DNA of 32,000 nucleotides from Candidatus Harpocratesius repetitus (GTDB lineage: Archaea > Asgardarchaeota > Lokiarchaeia > Sigyniarchaeales > Promethearchaeaceae): assembly GCA_021498095.1 (NCBI GenBank), contig JAIZWK010000001.1, forward strand, positions 570,001-602,000, read 5' to 3'. Below, piece after piece: positions 1 to 30,780 of the stretch. Positions within the stretch are counted from its first letter, which is position 1. The number at the start of each line of letters is the position of its first letter. The position numbers and the translations under genes are program-made. A model generated the notes under the pieces. The model did no database searches. It was not told the origin of the DNA and saw nothing but the letters and a program-made list of their open reading frames with translations.

Positions 1-3000
1 GCACAAGAGACAGAAAAATCCAAAATGGATGAAGAAATCACTTCTCAAAAATCAGAACTTTCAGCTAAAGAAGCAACTTTAAAAGCAACTGAAGAAAATT
101 TAAAACGGCTTCAGCAAAATATCGAGAAATTAGAAGATCTTCAGCAAAAACTGGAAGAAGGTCAAACTTATGATGATTTAATTAACAAAACAAAAGAAGA
201 AATTGAAAATCTTCAGCAAGCTTTAGATGAAAATTCAGGATTAATTGATGAAAATAAAGCGAAACAGAAAGAAGAAGAACAAATAATTGCACAAATAAAT
301 AATGAAAAAGCCCAAATTAATAAAGAAATCTCCAAAATCAAACAGGATGGTAAAGCTTTAACTACTGAAATCAAGCTTTTGGAAAAAACTATTAAAAAGA
401 ATGAGAAAAAGAGAGCTCAACTAGAAAAAGATTTGAAAAAGTTACAGAAAGACGCAGAAAGTGTAACTGAAGCGATGGAACAAGCAAAAAATGAAGCCAA
501 ATCCATTCAAGAAAAAATTTCAACATTGAAAAAGCAAATTACTGAGCAAAAATCACTACAAAAACAACTTGATGGAGAAATCCAAAAGCTAGAAGTAAAA
601 CGTGACAAATTTTCGAAATCACAAGCAGAAATTCAAGCTTCCATCTCTTCTGCAGGTGCAGAAATTAACATGCTTGAAACCCGTATACAAGAACTTGAAA
701 AGAAGAAAAAAGATTATAGAAACGAGTATGAAAAACTAACAAAAGGCCAAGCAGTTGAAGACCAAATCAAAACTTTAAAAGTCGAAGAAAAAGAAATCTC
801 ACAACAGTTAAAAAAGCTTAAAGAAAAACTTATTTCCGCAAATGATGAGCAAAAACGAAGTCAAAATAAACAAGAAACCTTGGAATTGAAACGACGAGCA
901 TTAGAAGGAGAATTGACCGACCTTGAAAAACGTCTTTCTGGATTACGTGTTGAACTAAAAACGGCAGAATCAGAACTTCATACTTCACAACGGGAAAAAC
1001 AACATAAAGATATTATCAAAGAAAATTTAATAAAAGAAATTACAATCCAAAAAGAACAAAAAGAGAAATTGCAAAATCAAGTTGAAAATTTTCAAGCTAA
1101 AATAAACCAAATGAAAAAAGAGCGCGCTAAACTTCAAGAAACAATTGATAAAAAGGAAGAAGAATATGGTCAAACTCAACTTGAATTAAACACAGTACTC
1201 GATAATCTAACGAATTTGATTCAAGATATTGATCGCTCTGCAGGTGATATCAAATCTGATATTCAAAATGTTAGTCAAGTTGCAATTGATGAATCAGGAA
1301 AAGTTTTCAAAGAATTTGTGCTCGATGTCACCGATATGTTGCGATCTATAGAAGAAATATCAGAAATGAATCCTGAAGATCCAAAAGAAATCCAGGAACA
1401 ACTGAATTTTGCAGTAAATACTTTAAAATTATTAATTGAAAATGCAGAACAACCACTAATTCAACTTAATGAAGTCGTTCAAGATGCTAGTGATGAAGCA
1501 TTAAAAGAATCTACTGGTAATTTCGATGGATTTATACAAGATTTTACAGATAAATTCGATTCAATTCGTGTTGCTTTACAAGCTGTCGCAGTAGCAGATA
1601 CATCAGAACATTATCGAGCATTAGAGGATCTGAATTCTGCTATTAGTTCCCAATCTGAAGAGCTCTCGAAAATATCAGTTCAGCTAACTCGAATCACAGC
1701 TCAACTGGAACAAAAAGAACGTGAATTATCACAAATCAATTCGGAATTAAAACAGTTACAAACAAAAATTGATGAAGCAGAGAAGAAATCTAAAATAGGT
1801 AAAAAAGAAAATGAAGAAAAAACCAAAAAATCTGAAGAAATAAAAGAAGAAATCGCAAAAATAACCTCCACAATTTTAGATATAAAAAAATCTTCTGAAA
1901 ATTTTTGGAAACATACAAAATCCCTACAAAATGAAATCGATAAAAAAGCAGAAATTCTTTCACAAATTACTGAAGATCTAAATAAATTGAGCAATGTAAA
2001 GCGATTGCTCGATGATATTGAAACAGCAGAACAAGATCAAACCCGATTACGAGATGAAATCAAAAATAAAAAACAGACAATTAAAGATCTTACTGAAAAA
2101 AGTAAAAATATCCAAAAGGATATTGATGCAAATCTTGAAGAAATTGCTAAAATTAAAACTAAACGAGAAAAAGCTGAAGATACTCGTAATGATATTCAAA
2201 CTCAAATCGATGAAGAAAATGAAAGACTTTCTGAAGTTAATGGAAGAATTAAAGATCTAGAAAATGTTCAAAAATTAATAACTGATATCGAAAACTTAAC
2301 AACAGAAATTGAAGAAAATACTGAAAAGATTGCAGAGAATACTAAACAGAATGAAATCTTGGAAGAAGATATTGCAAAACTTGAAAAAGATATTGAAAGT
2401 AAAAATAAATTGATTGAAGAGCACCAAACATCCAGACAATCATTGGAATCTGAAGAAAAAGAACTTCGCACTAAAACTAAAGAATTATCCACACAAATGA
2501 ATAATGTTGAAAAAATACTAGATAAACAACAACAGATGAAAGCACGGGAAGAAGAGATAGAAAATCTTAAGGATGAACAAGGTGAATTGGGCGATTTAAT
2601 AGCAGATTATCAAGAAGATATTCAAAAAATTACCGAAAATTTGATTTCTTTGGAAGAGACTCGTTCAAAACAAATTGAATCATTAAACGAATTACAATCG
2701 CAAAAAAATGAATCTTGGGAAAAACAAAAAGCACTTCGAGACGAGTTGGGCGATTTAAATGCAGACTTCTCCCGAAATACTGCTAAATTTAATGGATTAG
2801 AAACCCGGAAAATTGTAGTTGAAGAGAAAATTGATGAATTATTTGAAAAATCAAAGGATTACGGAACACTTCCACCAGTTACTGATGATCTTTCTGAAGA
2901 ATCCTTAAATCAAAAAATTGGTAAAGCCACAACAGAGAAAAAAGCATTAGAACCAGTAAATCTTAAATCAATTGAAGAATACGACCAAGTTAAGGAACGA

Positions 3001-3603
3001 TGGGACGAAATCGATATGCGCAGGCAAACATTGCAACGCGAAAGAAAAGCAATATTAGATTCAATCGATCGTATTGAATTAGAAAAAACTCGCAATTTTA
3101 TGAAAGCGTATCATGAAATTAATCGAGTATTTAGCTCTATCTTTCAAAAACTCTCTCCAGGTGGCTCAGCAAAGATGATTCTCGAAAATCCTGCACATCC
3201 ATTTGAAGGAGGGATTAGCATTGAAGCTCGTCCGCGTGGTAAGAAGATTTCTTCACTGGATATTCTTTCAGGGGGAGAAAAAACATTAGTTGCACTTTCT
3301 TTCATCTTTGCTATCCAAAACTTCTATCCTGCCCCATTTTATATTATGGACGAGATAGATGCTGCTCTTGATGGTCCAAATGTTTATCGCACTTCAATGG
3401 TTATCAAAGAATATGCTAGAACATCGCAATTCTTAGTAATTAGTCATCGTGAAGAAAATATTACAAACGCTGATAGAATTTATGGTGTCGCCATGAATGA
3501 TGGAATTACCGATATCTTTACCGTAAATTTGGAGGATGAAAAGAAGCGAGACGATTTTGAGACAGAAGTTGAAGTTGTTAAAGATGTTTCAGAATCACAA
3601 TAA
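1..3603 (+). CDS. smc: Chromosome segregation ATPase SMC, 5'-truncated by the window edge
   Basis: Frame is open from base 1 (AQETEKSK precedes the M at 25), so the true start is upstream. Long heptad-rich coiled coil, then PVNLKSIEEY (from 2953), ABC signature LSGGE (3265-3279), Walker B/D-loop DEIDAALD (from 3349) and H-loop SHR (3442). Followed directly by scpA and scpB. Walker A is not in the window. Confidence 0.93.
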   Translation, partial: AQETEKSKMDEEITSQKSELSAKEATLKATEENLKRLQQNIEKLEDLQQKLEEGQTYDDLINKTKEEIENLQQALDENSGLIDENKAKQKEEEQIIAQINNEKAQINKEISKIKQDGKALTTEIKLLEKTIKKNEKKRAQLEKDLKKLQKDAESVTEAMEQAKNEAKSIQEKISTLKKQITEQKSLQKQLDGEIQKLEVKRDKFSKSQAEIQASISSAGAEINMLETRIQELEKKKKDYRNEYEKLTKGQAVEDQIKTLKVEEKEISQQLKKLKEKLISANDEQKRSQNKQETLELKRRALEGELTDLEKRLSGLRVELKTAESELHTSQREKQHKDIIKENLIKEITIQKEQKEKLQNQVENFQAKINQMKKERAKLQETIDKKEEEYGQTQLELNTVLDNLTNLIQDIDRSAGDIKSDIQNVSQVAIDESGKVFKEFVLDVTDMLRSIEEISEMNPEDPKEIQEQLNFAVNTLKLLIENAEQPLIQLNEVVQDASDEALKESTGNFDGFIQDFTDKFDSIRVALQAVAVADTSEHYRALEDLNSAISSQSEELSKISVQLTRITAQLEQKERELSQINSELKQLQTKIDEAEKKSKIGKKENEEKTKKSEEIKEEIAKITSTILDIKKSSENFWKHTKSLQNEIDKKAEILSQITEDLNKLSNVKRLLDDIETAEQDQTRLRDEIKNKKQTIKDLTEKSKNIQKDIDANLEEIAKIKTKREKAEDTRNDIQTQIDEENERLSEVNGRIKDLENVQKLITDIENLTTEIEENTEKIAENTKQNEILEEDIAKLEKDIESKNKLIEEHQTSRQSLESEEKELRTKTKELSTQMNNVEKILDKQQQMKAREEEIENLKDEQGELGDLIADYQEDIQKITENLISLEETRSKQIESLNELQSQKNESWEKQKALRDELGDLNADFSRNTAKFNGLETRKIVVEEKIDELFEKSKDYGTLPPVTDDLSEESLNQKIGKATTEKKALEPVNLKSIEEYDQVKERWDEIDMRRQTLQRERKAILDSIDRIELEKTRNFMKAYHEINRVFSSIFQKLSPGGSAKMILENPAHPFEGGISIEARPRGKKISSLDILSGGEKTLVALSFIFAIQNFYPAPFYIMDEIDAALDGPNVYRTSMVIKEYARTSQFLVISHREENITNADRIYGVAMNDGITDIFTVNLEDEKKRDDFETEVEVVKDVSESQ

Positions 3604-3654
3604 GAATCGAAATAAAGAACGATATAAATAAGATCAATTTAAAAGGGGAGAAAA

Positions 3655-4755
3655 ATGCCAGAAAAAAAAACTGCAGCGAAAAAATCTTCTAGAAAGAAGA
3701 CTACAAAAAGGAAAGGTTCAACAAAAAAAAAATCAAAGAAGACAACTAATTCAAAAAAAAAAAAAAAACAAGCAACTTTATCAACTCCAAAAGCACCAAA
3801 ATCGACTTCAAAGAAAACTTCAACAAAAAAGCCAAGGAAAAAAACATCAAAGAAGGTAAAAAATAGCACAACGAAAAAGAAAAAATCTTCATCTATTCCA
3901 AAAGAACCTGTGATAAAAGAAGTTATTTCGATTGGTGATGATATAGAAGAACAAGAGGTGAATAAGGGAGAAATACTAGAAGATGAACCCCAGATAAAGA
4001 AATGGTGGTTGGAGGAACCTTATCGCAGTCTGTTAGATCCCGATTTAGCAAAAACGGTAGATTTTACCAAATTTGATTTATCTTCGCTAATTGAAGATTT
4101 TACAGCGAAGATGGTGGCTGAAGAATTAATAGATTTTCGTATCTCTGGATTAGCAATATATTCTTCTGCTCAATTATATCATACGAAGATTACAGGAGTG
4201 ATAAAGCAAGAAGAGGAAATTCAAAAAGCAGAAATGCGTGAACGAATTCGTCGTCAAATTCCGAAAGCAATTGCACAGCCACTAAGAGAAGCACGTAAAA
4301 TTGCAACTTCTGAAGAACTTTTTGGTGCTATGCGTAGAGCTATTATAGAAACCATGCAAAAACGAGAAAAGCTAAGAATTCGCCGAGAGCAGCAAAAAGC
4401 AAAAAGAGAGAAGGAAGTAAAAAAAAGAGGTAAAGGAAGGCTTCCTGCGGAAATTCTCAAACATATAACAGGAAGTGAAGAAACTATTGAAGAACGACTT
4501 AAGAAACGGCATCGTCAATTAGTCGAAATTGTACGTATGGAAAATCCGCCTGATCGCACAATTTCAATGAATTATTTTAAAAAAATGATATATAGTGATC
4601 CAGAAAAGAAGTTATTGGAAAAGAAAGTTAAATATATTCAAACATTTGAGGAAATGCTATTTTTAGCATCACTGGGGAAAGTGGTTCTTCATCAAGATGA
4701 CACTGAATCACCATTATATATCAAATTAGTTGATCAAACCAGTATTGAATTCTAA
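3655..4755 (+). CDS. scpA: Kleisin ScpA with an 80-aa Lys-rich N-terminal extension
   Basis: IDFRISGLAIYSSAQLYHTK matches the archaeal ScpA N-domain; TFEEMLFLASLGKVVLHQ...PLYIKL matches the C-terminal winged helix. Lies between smc and scpB. SD-like GGGGAG upstream of the ATG. Confidence 0.85.
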   Translation: MPEKKTAAKKSSRKKTTKRKGSTKKKSKKTTNSKKKKKQATLSTPKAPKSTSKKTSTKKPRKKTSKKVKNSTTKKKKSSSIPKEPVIKEVISIGDDIEEQEVNKGEILEDEPQIKKWWLEEPYRSLLDPDLAKTVDFTKFDLSSLIEDFTAKMVAEELIDFRISGLAIYSSAQLYHTKITGVIKQEEEIQKAEMRERIRRQIPKAIAQPLREARKIATSEELFGAMRRAIIETMQKREKLRIRREQQKAKREKEVKKRGKGRLPAEILKHITGSEETIEERLKKRHRQLVEIVRMENPPDRTISMNYFKKMIYSDPEKKLLEKKVKYIQTFEEMLFLASLGKVVLHQDDTESPLYIKLVDQTSIEF

Positions 4756-4781
4756 AATATGAGACTTAAGAGGTAATCAAG

Positions 4782-5777
4782 ATGTCAGAAAAAGAAGAGA
4801 ATAAGAATGAAGATAAAGAAATATCTGAAAAATCAGAAGAAAAATCAAGTGAAATCCAAAACACAAATCAAAATGCGAGTTTAAATGATAATCAGAAGCC
4901 AGAAAGTAATAATAACTTAGAAGTATCTTTGGATAATGACAACGAATTCGATGATGAAATACTCTCAGACTTAGAAGAACTAGATGAAAGTTTAGATTTA
5001 CCCACAGAGAAAGAGGATAATGAAGAGATTGTTGAAGAAGAAGAGAAATTAGACACGATTGATGAAAATGTTCAATTAGAAAAAGATGAAAAAGTGGGAG
5101 AAGAAATAGATACTGAAGAAAAAATAGGAGAAGAAATAGATACTGAAGAAAGAATAGGAGAAAAAATAGATACTGAAGAAAGAATAGGAGAAAAAATAGA
5201 AGGAGAAGATGATGCTTTTCTAGATGAATCAAAAATTGCCCCAATGAGTGACGAAGAAGAAGCACATATCCATTTAAAAAATGTAGTCGAAGGTGCATTA
5301 TTTGTTGCGGGGCGCCCAGTCTCGTTAGAAGAGTTAAATGTGAAAACGGATATTAAAAAGCGGGATTTAGAAGCATTGTTGGATGAGTTAGCTATGGATT
5401 ATTTAATGCGTTCAACTGCTTTGGAAATAATTCGAATTCAAGATAAATACAGTCTGCAAATTAAACCTGAATATACTCCGCGAGTGAAAAAATTTGCCAG
5501 CGGTGGTTTAATTCCAGATGCAATACTGAAGACTTTGACCATCATAGCGCTAAAGCAACCTTTAATGAAATCTACTTTGGTAAAACTTCGCGGTTCTACT
5601 GCTTATGAACATGTGAAGTTTTTAATTGATAGAGGATATATTGAAGCAAGAAAAAAGGGACGTTCATCTGAATTATGTACAACAGATCAATTTGCAGATA
5701 CATTTGGTTTGTCAAGAGATATTGAAACTCAAAAAAAGCAATTAATTGCACAATTAGGTGTCCAAGATGGGAAATAA
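4782..5777 (+). CDS. scpB: SMC-Scp complex subunit ScpB with a ~160-aa acidic N-terminal extension
   Basis: VEGALFVAGRPVSLEEL, YSLQIKPEY, TLTIIALKQP, KLRGSTAYEHVKFLIDRGYI and TTDQFADTFGL are typical ScpB tandem winged-helix motifs. SD GAGGT upstream. Confidence 0.93.
   Translation: MSEKEENKNEDKEISEKSEEKSSEIQNTNQNASLNDNQKPESNNNLEVSLDNDNEFDDEILSDLEELDESLDLPTEKEDNEEIVEEEEKLDTIDENVQLEKDEKVGEEIDTEEKIGEEIDTEERIGEKIDTEERIGEKIEGEDDAFLDESKIAPMSDEEEAHIHLKNVVEGALFVAGRPVSLEELNVKTDIKKRDLEALLDELAMDYLMRSTALEIIRIQDKYSLQIKPEYTPRVKKFASGGLIPDAILKTLTIIALKQPLMKSTLVKLRGSTAYEHVKFLIDRGYIEARKKGRSSELCTTDQFADTFGLSRDIETQKKQLIAQLGVQDGK
5088..5200 (+). repeat. In-frame 30-bp tandem repeat (~3.8 copies) encoding GE(E/K)IDTEE(K/R)I
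   Basis: Unit ggagaagaaatagatactgaagaaaaaata at 5097-5126, with near-identical copies at 5127-5156 and 5157-5186 and partial copies on both sides. No spacers. Confidence 0.95.
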
Positions 5778-5848
5778 ATCATTTTACGGCTAAATCTCTA
5801 TCTTCTTTCTTTCGTTTTTTCTATTTAGTTTTTTCTATTTAGCTTTTT

Positions 5849-6994
5849 CTATCTCCCTTCATCGAGATTTAGATTTTTCCAGTAATCAGGTATGAAAATT
5901 GCACGATTTTGCTCAAAACTATCCACAATACCACGTGTAATAGCGAATGATTTAATTGCATCTTTAAAATTGGTTTGAGGTTGTAATTTCCCACAAGATT
6001 CAATTCCTTGATAAAATTCTTCTAAAAGGAATAGTTCTGAGGAATAATTTTGTGCATTGTATTCCACATCTGAAGTAATGGGAATCTCAGTCGTGTGATA
6101 TTTAAATCCTTCAGGATCCTCAAATTCAGTTAACGAGAGCTGTTTTTCTTTGTTTTTCTCAAATAAATTGATTTCGCCCTCCTCACAATTAAGATCTAAA
6201 CGATGATATAATTCTCCTTTCTTTTGCCAATCGCCTCTATATGTTGCGTAAATCCAGTTATCAGGATTATAATAATCTTCTGGGCGCGCTAAGGCAAGAA
6301 TCGCAAACGTGGTTGAAGATCCTTTAAAGTACGAAAAGCTTGGTTTAAAGTTCACTCCACCTTGAACTTGTACCACATCCATCTCTGTAAGATATCTAAT
6401 TAAGTCTAAATGGTGGGGTGCCATATCTTCTAAAAATAGATCGCGTAGCCATCGGCGCCACCCTTGACGTGTTTTTCCCCAATTGTACAGATAAGTAAGA
6501 TTCAATGATGTGATAGATTTTAGCGAATCTTTGCGTTCAAGGTAAGTTTTCTTTACAGACCAATTATGGGGAAAGAAACGAGTTTGAGTTCCGACAGCAG
6601 TGCATAATTCTGGATATTTTGCTGCAGTTTTTACCATTTCACGCGCTTGAGAAATTGTACTTGCCATATTTTTTTCGCTTAACACATTTAAGCCGAGATC
6701 CAGAGCTTCCATGGATAATACATGATGAGTATAAGTAGGAGTAACTAAAATTGCGAGATCATAAGGCCCTTTGCCGAATTGGATTGCTTCTTCCATGGAA
6801 GTAAAACATTCACCTTTTGGAATCCCCCATATTTTCGGAGCATGCTCCAATTTATCGGTATTTGTATCAACAACGGCCCCGATTTCCCACCGTGGATGGG
6901 TTTCTATTGCTTTTCGCCAAACATGGGCATGTCCGCCAATTCCAACAATTAACGCACGTTTTTTTCTGGATTTTGCAGAATGATTCAGATTCAT
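5849..6994 (-). CDS. Gfo/Idh/MocA-family NAD(P)-dependent oxidoreductase
   Basis: N-terminal Rossmann motif ALIVGIGGHA; LNVLSEKNMA (EKP-type motif); DMAPHHLDL (D-x3-H-x2-D). Substrate unknown. Confidence 0.88.
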   Translation of the reverse strand: MNLNHSAKSRKKRALIVGIGGHAHVWRKAIETHPRWEIGAVVDTNTDKLEHAPKIWGIPKGECFTSMEEAIQFGKGPYDLAILVTPTYTHHVLSMEALDLGLNVLSEKNMASTISQAREMVKTAAKYPELCTAVGTQTRFFPHNWSVKKTYLERKDSLKSITSLNLTYLYNWGKTRQGWRRWLRDLFLEDMAPHHLDLIRYLTEMDVVQVQGGVNFKPSFSYFKGSSTTFAILALARPEDYYNPDNWIYATYRGDWQKKGELYHRLDLNCEEGEINLFEKNKEKQLSLTEFEDPEGFKYHTTEIPITSDVEYNAQNYSSELFLLEEFYQGIESCGKLQPQTNFKDAIKSFAITRGIVDSFEQNRAIFIPDYWKNLNLDEGR

Positions 6995-30465: not shown

Positions 30466-30525
30466 AGGATAACGTTATTATTACAATATATCCGCGGAGG
30501 ATATAGAGTTTTTGACGTGATTATT

Positions 30526-30780
30526 ATGGCTAAGAAAAAATCAAAGAAACCAGCTCCAAAGAAAAAGAAACCCGCTAGTCGCGCTTCTTATATCGCGAAG
30601 GCACCTATTCGACGTTTAATGAAAGATGAAGGCGCATCTTTAGTTGCGGAAGATGCACTAGAATTGTTAATTGATGTTTTAACCAAAGCCGCTCAAAATA
30701 AAACCAAAGCTGCTATTAAATTGGTTAAAGCAGATAAACGCAAGCGCGTCACTGCCGCCGATATTAGCGCTGCAGAATAA
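30526..30780 (+). CDS. Archaeal histone (HMf-type fold) with Lys-rich N-terminal tail
   Basis: IAKAPIRRLMKDEGASLVAEDA...AIKLVKADKRKRVTAADI aligns without gaps with the HMfB fold as recalled. ATG 30526 follows SD-like GACGTGA; GTG 30517 is the alternative. Confidence 0.92.
   Translation: MAKKKSKKPAPKKKKPASRASYIAKAPIRRLMKDEGASLVAEDALELLIDVLTKAAQNKTKAAIKLVKADKRKRVTAADISAAE

Follow-up and report, generated by a model that had tools for sequence, protein, structure and literature searches.

The stretch of DNA described here, referred to as the window, comprises 32,000 nucleotides of Candidatus Harpocratesius repetitus (contig JAIZWK010000001.1) and corresponds to positions 570001–602000 of a single-contig genome of 4.36 Mb. 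At its beginning, three genes are located on the same (+) strand in the order smc-scpA-scpB. They encode the three subunits of a condensin of the Smc-ScpAB type: the SMC protein, the kleisin ScpA and the kite subunit ScpB. Both ScpA and ScpB carry a long amino-terminal extension, polybasic in the former and acidic in the latter. Sequence and predicted structure indicate that both tails are translated and intrinsically disordered, and that they extend the subunits of a lineage-specific Smc-ScpAB variant found in one order of Loki-type Asgard archaea; their probable role is to regulate DNA binding from within the complex. The initial annotation of the window had proposed that they form an electrostatic switch, in which the ScpB tail shields the ScpA tail until DNA is engaged, or that the ScpB tail chaperones the tailed histone or drives condensate formation, within what might be an undescribed condensin variant with a long SMC.

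The smc-scpA-scpB locus

The features of the locus are listed in Table 1. The closest named relatives of both ScpA and ScpB are found in Candidatus Harpocratesius and in other Promethearchaeota (Loki-type Asgard archaea). ScpB is recognised directly by PF04079 (116.4 bits against a cut-off of 27.4, residues 168–312) and by TIGR00281 (100.6 bits against a cut-off of 89.2), while the NCBIfam model for the long form of ScpB (NF001106) yields just 46.6 bits, with a cut-off of 300.

For ScpA, the single sequence gave no Pfam match at E ≤ 0.01 and the NCBIfam scan was likewise uninformative. A profile of 58 homologues matched the amino-terminal domain of a solved ScpA structure (6ivh_A) with an E-value of 6.8e-5 and, more weakly, the carboxy-terminal domains of ScpA and Scc1; PF02616 is matched by 13 of these 58 sequences. 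When the AlphaFold2 model of ScpA was compared with known structures using Foldseek, the top matches were kleisins (RAD21, Scc1, Nse4, Brn1 and ScpA). The carboxy-terminal winged helix matches chains C and D of PDB entry 4I99 (4i99_C/D) with a TMt of 0.77–0.80 and a probability of 1.00, and also the carboxy-terminal domains of Scc1 and RAD21; the E-values are weak (0.009–0.06) because the query is long and extended. From the profile match, the presence of PF02616 in homologues, the structural matches and the position of the gene between smc and scpB, ScpA is identified as a kleisin. Its folded core contains an amino-terminal helical domain, a central basic helix (residues 219–255, with +7 to +9 net charges per 30 residues) and the carboxy-terminal winged helix (residues 278–358). 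The order of the three genes is consistent with binding of ScpB to ScpA. At the carboxy-terminal end of the SMC protein, a short acidic stretch (3530–3603) is present beyond the head domain.

Table 1. Features of the smc-scpA-scpB locus (positions in the window)
Feature	Position	Strand	Basis
smc, 3' part, 1200 amino acids, open at the 5' end	1..3603	+	SMC_N head and long coiled coil, no detectable hinge; PF02463, 2.7e-21
Shine-Dalgarno-like GGGGAG, 4 nt before the scpA ATG	3645..3650	+	read from sequence
scpA, kleisin of 366 amino acids	3655..4755	+	profile, fold, gene order
ScpA polybasic tract rich in K, S and T, residues 1–83, net +36, predicted disordered	3655..3903	+	composition, AlphaFold2, charge profile
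A16 homopolymer in the lysine run of the ScpA tail, slippage-prone, frame intact here	3753..3768	+	sequence
ScpA linker, residues 84–113: conserved K-E-V-I-S-I-G motif, then acidic patch, net −9	3904..3993	+	alignment, charge
Folded kleisin core of ScpA, residues 114–366	3994..4752	+	AlphaFold2 model, charge profile, PDB matches
Shine-Dalgarno-like GAGGT, 7 nt before the scpB ATG	4770..4774	+	read from sequence
scpB, kite subunit of 331 amino acids	4782..5777	+	PF04079, TIGR00281
ScpB acidic amino-terminal tail, residues 1–156, about 41% D/E, predicted disordered	4782..5249	+	composition, AlphaFold2
Conserved amphipathic acidic helix motif D-D-E-I-L-S-D-L-E-E-L-D, ScpB residues 57–68	4950..4985	+	predicted helix (57–65), alignment
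Tandem repeat, 30-bp unit, 3.5 copies, 97% matches, encoding a 10-residue acidic repeat	5097..5200	+	sequence
Internal Met155 codon of scpB, alternative start	5244..5246	+	column not conserved
ScpB folded core, two tandem winged-helix domains, residues 157–325	5250..5756	+	AlphaFold2 (pLDDT about 95), Pfam, TIGRFAM

The charged tails and their translation

The first 160 residues of ScpB contain 65 aspartates or glutamates (D/E) and 16 lysines or arginines (K/R), giving a net charge of −49 and a D/E content of about 41%. Residues 1–82 of ScpA comprise 36 K/R and a single D/E, together with 14 serines and 14 threonines. With proteome background frequencies of 11.8% for both D+E and K+R, the binomial tail probabilities are 1.7e-20 for the acidic residues of ScpB and 3.3e-13 for the basic residues of ScpA. 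The counts given in the initial annotation (65 D/E and 16 K/R in ScpB, a strongly basic tail in ScpA) proved exact on recount, and composition, AlphaFold2 models and conserved reading frames agree with its description of two real, disordered tails of opposite sign. Crude open reading frames of at least 120 codons from the whole genome (n = 3045) were ranked by the charge of their amino-terminal ends. ScpA has the most basic first 82 residues of the genome (+35, with a runner-up at +27) and ScpB the most acidic first 160 residues (−49). The two genes are also the only adjacent same-strand pair in the genome that joins a strongly basic and a strongly acidic end.

AlphaFold2 calculations with alignments assign a predicted local distance difference test score (pLDDT) below 50 to residues 1–112 of ScpA, which are predicted to be disordered and contain no helix; the folded amino-terminal domain starts at about residue 115. 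The disordered extension is thus placed directly upstream of the neck-binding kleisin domain. In ScpB, residues 1–150 are modelled with low confidence, except for a short helix formed by residues 57–65. Polybasic tails rich in lysine, serine and threonine are also present on further proteins of the genome (L069–L073), four of them without a Pfam match. The translation initiation factor aIF2-gamma (L071, 3806503–3808089; GTP_EFTU and eIF2_C) has an amino-terminal tail of this kind of about 110 residues.

For comparison with relatives, 301 genomes of the Asgard phylum were searched with the ScpB core, 55 operon regions were fetched, and extensions were scored upstream of the profile-defined cores, each core being assigned to the domain that began earliest in the profile. 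Start codons of the relatives were deduced rather than taken from annotation, with GTG, TTG, ATA and ATT also accepted. In the 54 ScpA/ScpB pairs with a scorable tail, the ScpB tail measures 68–224 amino acids and has a net charge of −13 to −98, with a D/E fraction of 0.25–0.59. The sign of the charge and the density of acidic residues are kept, while length and sequence drift through repeat expansion; at the sequence level, the 30-bp tandem repeat in scpB shows that its tail has expanded recently. The helix motif, which in homologues reads E-I-[LM]-[AS]-D-L-E-[ED]-L-D, is found at variable distances from the amino-terminus. Of 120 homologues, 23 fit a strict pattern; in the alignment, about 35 of 60 sequences show the motif. 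It overlaps the sole helix predicted in the tail and is, by its appearance, a candidate docking motif. Some relatives (L013, L032; P0174, P0175, P0179, P0192) have a second acidic tail at the carboxy-terminus of ScpB, of 60–92 amino acids and with a net charge of about −25 to −34.

In the linker of ScpA, Glu89 is at least 90% conserved (alignment A1). The A16 run in the lysine codons of the preceding tract could switch the reading frame.

The initial annotation had considered that ScpB might start at the internal Met155. Shine-Dalgarno-like sites precede the first ATG codons of both scpA and scpB, while no such site is present upstream of the Met155 codon. Of 60 ScpB homologues, 39 have no methionine at a distance of up to 28 residues from where the core begins. 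The extended frames of scpA and scpB are conserved in every relative within the order, the acidic frame being open in every scorable operon, and an open frame of 154 codons is not expected by chance in DNA of 33% G+C. The placement of the Shine-Dalgarno-like sites, the lack of conservation of Met155 and the conserved acidic frame make it very unlikely, as far as sequence can tell, that ScpB starts solely at Met155. A look-up of RNA sequencing runs over positions 3400–5900 listed none. In seven scpA genes of family f2, one of the two families of the order (L010, L011, L012, L014, L022, L023 and L028), the conserved open frame for the SAP-like amino-terminus begins without a nearby ATG, GTG or TTG, ATA or ATT being the earliest codon at which translation could plausibly initiate; probably, either isoleucine codons serve as starts in these genes or gene callers have placed their starts wrongly.

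Distribution of the tails and diversity of the ScpA extension

In the order to which the window belongs (families f1 and f2), both extensions are present in all 28 complete operons scored, with ScpA extensions of 76–163 amino acids and acidic ScpB tails of 68–199 amino acids (net charge −13 to −90). In other Asgard families, represented by 18 operons (f5, f8, f9, f10, f14, f15, f21, f22, f23 and f28), the ScpA extension measures 4–34 amino acids and there is no acidic amino-terminal ScpB tail, the ScpB extension being 0–22 amino acids long, except for a basic open frame of 57 amino acids in L036 that is probably an artefact of start choice. The complete proteins in these operons have 224–262 (ScpA) and 178–242 (ScpB) amino acids. 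Intermediate or different arrangements are found elsewhere. A family of the same class as the window (f4) has a tail of 41 amino acids with a net charge of −10, and family f29 (L045) has a carboxy-terminal ScpB tail only, of 81 amino acids. In families f24 and f30, two tandem, divergent ScpB paralogues follow scpA (L048/G119, L049/G268 and L050/G289), some of them with mildly acidic amino-terminal extensions of 59–131 amino acids or with a carboxy-terminal tail of 98 amino acids.

The SMC protein of the operon differs as well. It measures about 1475–1500 amino acids in four tailed lineages and 1173–1209 amino acids in four untailed ones. The hinge domain PF06470 was found in all four SMC proteins checked from untailed Asgard families (about 1e-32), while it gave no match in residues 1–800 of the SMC of the window, nor in the central 700 residues of the SMC proteins of four tailed relatives. 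Both tails and the loss of the hinge share one clade, in the five tailed and four untailed operons checked. The same genome contains two further SMC-type loci with kites of 196 and 186 amino acids, neither of which has a tail. In the first (L002, 1714365–1717847), a gene matching SMC_N is directly followed by the 196-residue ScpB-like gene. In the second (L003, 1241979–1245341), a gene matching SMC_N is followed by a 268-residue unknown gene, possibly a kleisin, and then by the 186-residue ScpB-like gene. It follows that the tails characterise this particular complex rather than kites as such.

Multiple SMC complexes have been described in Asgard archaea, with the tails unmentioned (bioRxiv 10.1101/2024.01.07.573240), and a literature search on ScpB or kleisin tails in Asgard archaea or Lokiarchaeota found no description of them. 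The complex is a lineage-specific Smc-ScpAB variant with disordered, charge-opposed tails, tied to a hinge-less SMC, for which we found no published description. The suggestion of an undescribed condensin variant with a long SMC thus holds at the level of the clade, the SMC being long and without a detectable hinge in all five tailed operons checked.

The ScpB tail is acidic throughout the order, but the position in front of the ScpA core is occupied in different ways. Family f1 and several deeper branches have a polybasic tract with a net charge of +20 to +41. In family f2, it is replaced by an element of about 35 amino acids (W-T-V-K-E-L-R-E-F...), followed by an acidic linker. This element matches models of the Ish1/SAP/HeH/LEM group with 26.9–28.1 bits (the Ish1 cut-off being 26.6, while the HeH model gives 27.9 bits with a cut-off of 28.9). 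Other relatives have a helix-hairpin-helix at the same position (HHH_5, 54–56 bits against a cut-off of 27), and further ones start with a zinc-ribbon-like C-x2-C sequence. Since these different nucleic-acid-binding modules share one position, the ScpA extension would be expected to bind DNA. In a tree of the concatenated cores, the SAP-type clade is nested among polybasic lineages, which suggests that the polybasic tract is the older state. The ScpA core itself is more basic in the tailed clade (median net charge +7 versus −5.5), to which the central basic helix contributes.

Possible roles of the tails and comparison with known systems

In solved structures of Smc-ScpAB, the amino-terminal domain of the kleisin clamps the neck of the SMC protein, and in bacteria a ScpB dimer binds to the middle part of ScpA. 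The reading we favour, tentatively and with a little less than even confidence, is that the extension of ScpA serves as an exchangeable appendage for DNA binding, and that the ScpB tail is a tethered polyanion with a conserved helical motif that competes with DNA. The appendage, be it a polybasic tract rich in lysine, serine and threonine, a SAP/HeH-like domain, a helix-hairpin-helix or a zinc-ribbon-like element, would contact DNA directly upstream of the neck-clamping domain. The ScpB tail, of which there would be two per complex if the dimer forms as in bacteria, would compete with DNA for basic elements, namely the tail of ScpA, its kleisin core, which is unusually basic, and perhaps the surface with which kite or head captures DNA. 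It is a D/E-dense disordered segment tethered to a DNA-handling complex, as is characteristic of acidic DNA mimics and autoinhibitory tails that act in cis. As such a mimic, it may gate loading, by preventing unproductive adhesion of the complex to DNA up to that point. In favour of this reading are the extreme charge of the tails and the adjacency of their genes, their joint occurrence across the order with a hinge-less SMC where checked, the untailed kites elsewhere in the genome, the DNA-binding modules of relatives, the more basic ScpA core, the retained charge and helix motif of the ScpB tail and a weak covariation of charge. Three precedents make the mechanism plausible, namely the action of T7 gp5.9 on MukE, D/E-rich disordered regions and the amino-terminal tail of the kleisin CAP-H, all of which are discussed below.

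The strict form of the switch, in which the acidic tail of ScpB mainly shields the basic tail of ScpA until DNA displaces it, is unlikely, although several observations speak for it. The tails are opposite in sign, are encoded by adjacent genes and are the extremes of the genome. Among the scored pairs, none credibly combines a polybasic ScpA with a ScpB that lacks the acidic tail. The single candidate, P0184, was rejected as a tail-less ScpB with a basic ScpA: in the pair P0058/P0184, the ScpB tail is preserved as a separate open reading frame of 89 amino acids, followed by a change of frame into the core (L079:2164–3091); this frameshift reflects an error in the assembly or else a natural separation of tail and core. 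The polybasic charge of ScpA correlates with the charge of the ScpB tail (Spearman −0.58, uncorrected, n = 55), and with independent contrasts on the core tree a weak correlation persists (r = −0.28, p = 0.04, 54 pairs after dropping one duplicate). The lengths of the tails do not covary significantly (independent contrasts, r = 0.19). Of the co-occurrence and length covariation that the initial annotation had put forward as tests, the former is seen in the whole order, but it represents essentially one evolutionary event and is not independent statistical evidence; covariation is seen for charge, weakly and in the predicted direction, but not significantly for length.

Against shielding as the main role, the ScpB tail persists where its proposed partner is missing. 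In the 16 SAP-type f2 loci, the ScpA extension has a net charge of −3 to −16, and f2 ScpB tails, facing a SAP/HeH-like domain and an acidic linker instead of a polybasic tract, remain acidic (−13 to −54 in the family, −13 to −47 in its SAP-type members). In four other pairs (P0046/P0137, P0048/P0162, P0037/P0151 and P0038/P0150), the ScpA tract has a net charge of just +4 to +8, with ScpB tails of −45 to −69. The ScpB tail therefore does not require the basic tail of ScpA. The charges are not matched either: if a ScpB dimer is bound to one ScpA, two tails of −49 (about −98) face +36. The dependence is one-sided, and the basic tail of ScpA may well be one partner of the ScpB tail, but judging from these comparisons it cannot be the only reason for it. 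A prediction of the complex between residues 1–116 of ScpA and 1–158 of ScpB, performed with alignments, gave no answer (score 0.00), the method being blind to fuzzy electrostatic complexes.

It is also quite unlikely that the tails lack a specific regulatory role. They would then be low-complexity growth, either tolerated or retained as entropic bristles that aid solubility or spacing, and would mirror how readily charged repeats build up in these genomes in general. The recent 30-bp repeats (3.5 copies, 97% matches), the range of tail lengths among relatives (68–224 amino acids) and the tails rich in lysine, serine and threonine on unrelated proteins are what such growth would produce. However, the sign and density of charge are kept across the order, while the cores are just about 45–60% identical, and a short helical motif is conserved within the drifting tail. 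Moreover, relatives have folded DNA-binding domains at the position of the ScpA tail, within this genome the kites at both further SMC loci are untailed, and the tails are the most extreme amino-termini of the genome.

A still more doubtful alternative is that the ScpB tail acts on other basic chromatin proteins in the manner of a chaperone, allowing the complex to pass or displace histones. A candidate partner, already named in the initial annotation, is encoded in the window (30517–30780, + strand, probably starting at 30526): a protein with the histone fold and a lysine- and proline-rich amino-terminal tail of about 20 amino acids, which scores 44.1 bits with the NCBIfam archaeal histone model, for which the cut-off is 50. 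Eukaryotic histone chaperones typically have long D/E tails, and the surplus of negative charge in two ScpB tails leaves room for partners other than ScpA. On the other hand, 25 kb separate the histone gene from the operon, to which it is unlinked; and while Asgard archaea generally encode histones, the other families of the phylum in the survey have no ScpB tail. Finally, translation of ScpB from Met155, with the upstream 154 codons outside the protein, has next to nothing in its favour beyond the location of this methionine immediately in front of the helix that opens the folded core, and the Shine-Dalgarno-like sites, the homologues and the open acidic frames described above speak against it.

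Several points weigh against a swappable DNA anchor on ScpA and a competing polyanion on ScpB. The SAP/HeH matches are borderline with respect to the Pfam cut-offs. ScpA has an acidic patch of its own (net −9) beside the basic tract, and could inhibit itself without ScpB. The tails rich in lysine, serine and threonine on aIF2-gamma and on unknown proteins mean that the basic tract of ScpA may be a general nucleic-acid or solubility appendage, not specific to condensin. All comparative signals come from essentially one clade with one origin, and other histone-bearing Asgard lineages manage without either tail.

The hinge is a site of DNA binding and dimerisation in SMC proteins. A bolder proposal, which is unlikely in its entirety, is that this order of Loki-type archaea has rebuilt its condensin: with the hinge lost, a swappable DNA anchor on the kleisin and a DNA mimic with a docking helix on the kite would provide a disorder-based on/off control of loading, perhaps tuned by phosphorylation of the serine- and threonine-rich tract, in parallel to the control of eukaryotic condensin I by its kleisin tail.

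SMC complexes fold chromosomes in all forms of life, and how they grip DNA and how their loading is controlled are open questions. With no recognisable hinge, interchangeable kleisin modules and a polyanion on the kite, this lineage is a natural experiment near the stem of the eukaryotes. If the tails regulate loading, disorder-based control of condensin would not be a eukaryotic invention, and the compact three-protein complex could be used to test the contributions of the hinge, of a second DNA anchor and of a built-in DNA mimic. If they are inert, they would call for caution about the growth of charged low-complexity sequences in Asgard proteomes.

The locus shares with the canonical Smc-ScpAB complexes of Bacillus subtilis, Streptococcus pneumoniae and Pyrococcus/Thermococcus (PDB entries 3W6J, 4I98, 4I99 and 6IVH) the smc-scpA-scpB gene order, a ScpB matching PF04079 and TIGR00281, and a kleisin with an amino-terminal domain and a carboxy-terminal winged helix. 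It differs from them in the disordered amino-terminal extension of 113 amino acids in ScpA and the acidic amino-terminal tail of about 156 amino acids in ScpB. The ScpA and ScpB proteins of other Asgard families, of canonical size, likewise lack such tails. The central hinge (PF06470) of the canonical holocomplex is not detected here, and the SMC protein is about 1.25 times as long as the hinge-bearing SMC proteins of other Asgard archaea.

Elaboration of the kite subunit is also seen in the paired kite paralogues of Asgard archaea and in eukaryotic Nse1-Nse3. The Asgard paralogues are encoded in SMC operons, some with the mildly acidic amino-terminal extensions mentioned above (L048–L050), while our operon contains a single scpB without a paralogue, and the tail of its product is far more acidic.

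The kleisin of vertebrate condensin I, CAP-H, has a disordered amino-terminal tail of about 80 amino acids that is rich in serine and threonine, is located just upstream of the neck-binding motif and negatively gates loading (Tane et al. 2022, PMC9797191). The disordered extension of ScpA is likewise rich in serine and threonine and placed directly upstream of the neck-binding segment, which makes it a functional and positional analogue only. The CAP-H tail is confined to vertebrates and has no sequence relationship with the ScpA tract, so that any likeness is convergent. It also contains a conserved central helix and many SP/TP sites, while the ScpA tail has no predicted helix and a single TP site (Thr44-Pro45) among the 28 serines and threonines of residues 1–82.

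For the ScpB tail, the nearest likeness is found in dense polyanions that act beside DNA-binding surfaces. The acidic DNA mimic gp5.9 of T7 occupies the cleft in which the kite MukE captures DNA and prevents loading of MukBEF (PMC7617805), and D/E-rich disordered regions autoinhibit DNA-binding proteins and speed up target search (PMC10250230). The target of gp5.9 is thus the DNA-capture cleft of a kite in an SMC complex. Gp5.9 is a separate, folded viral protein, whereas in our complex the polyanion, with its inferred target and effect, is part of the kite itself.

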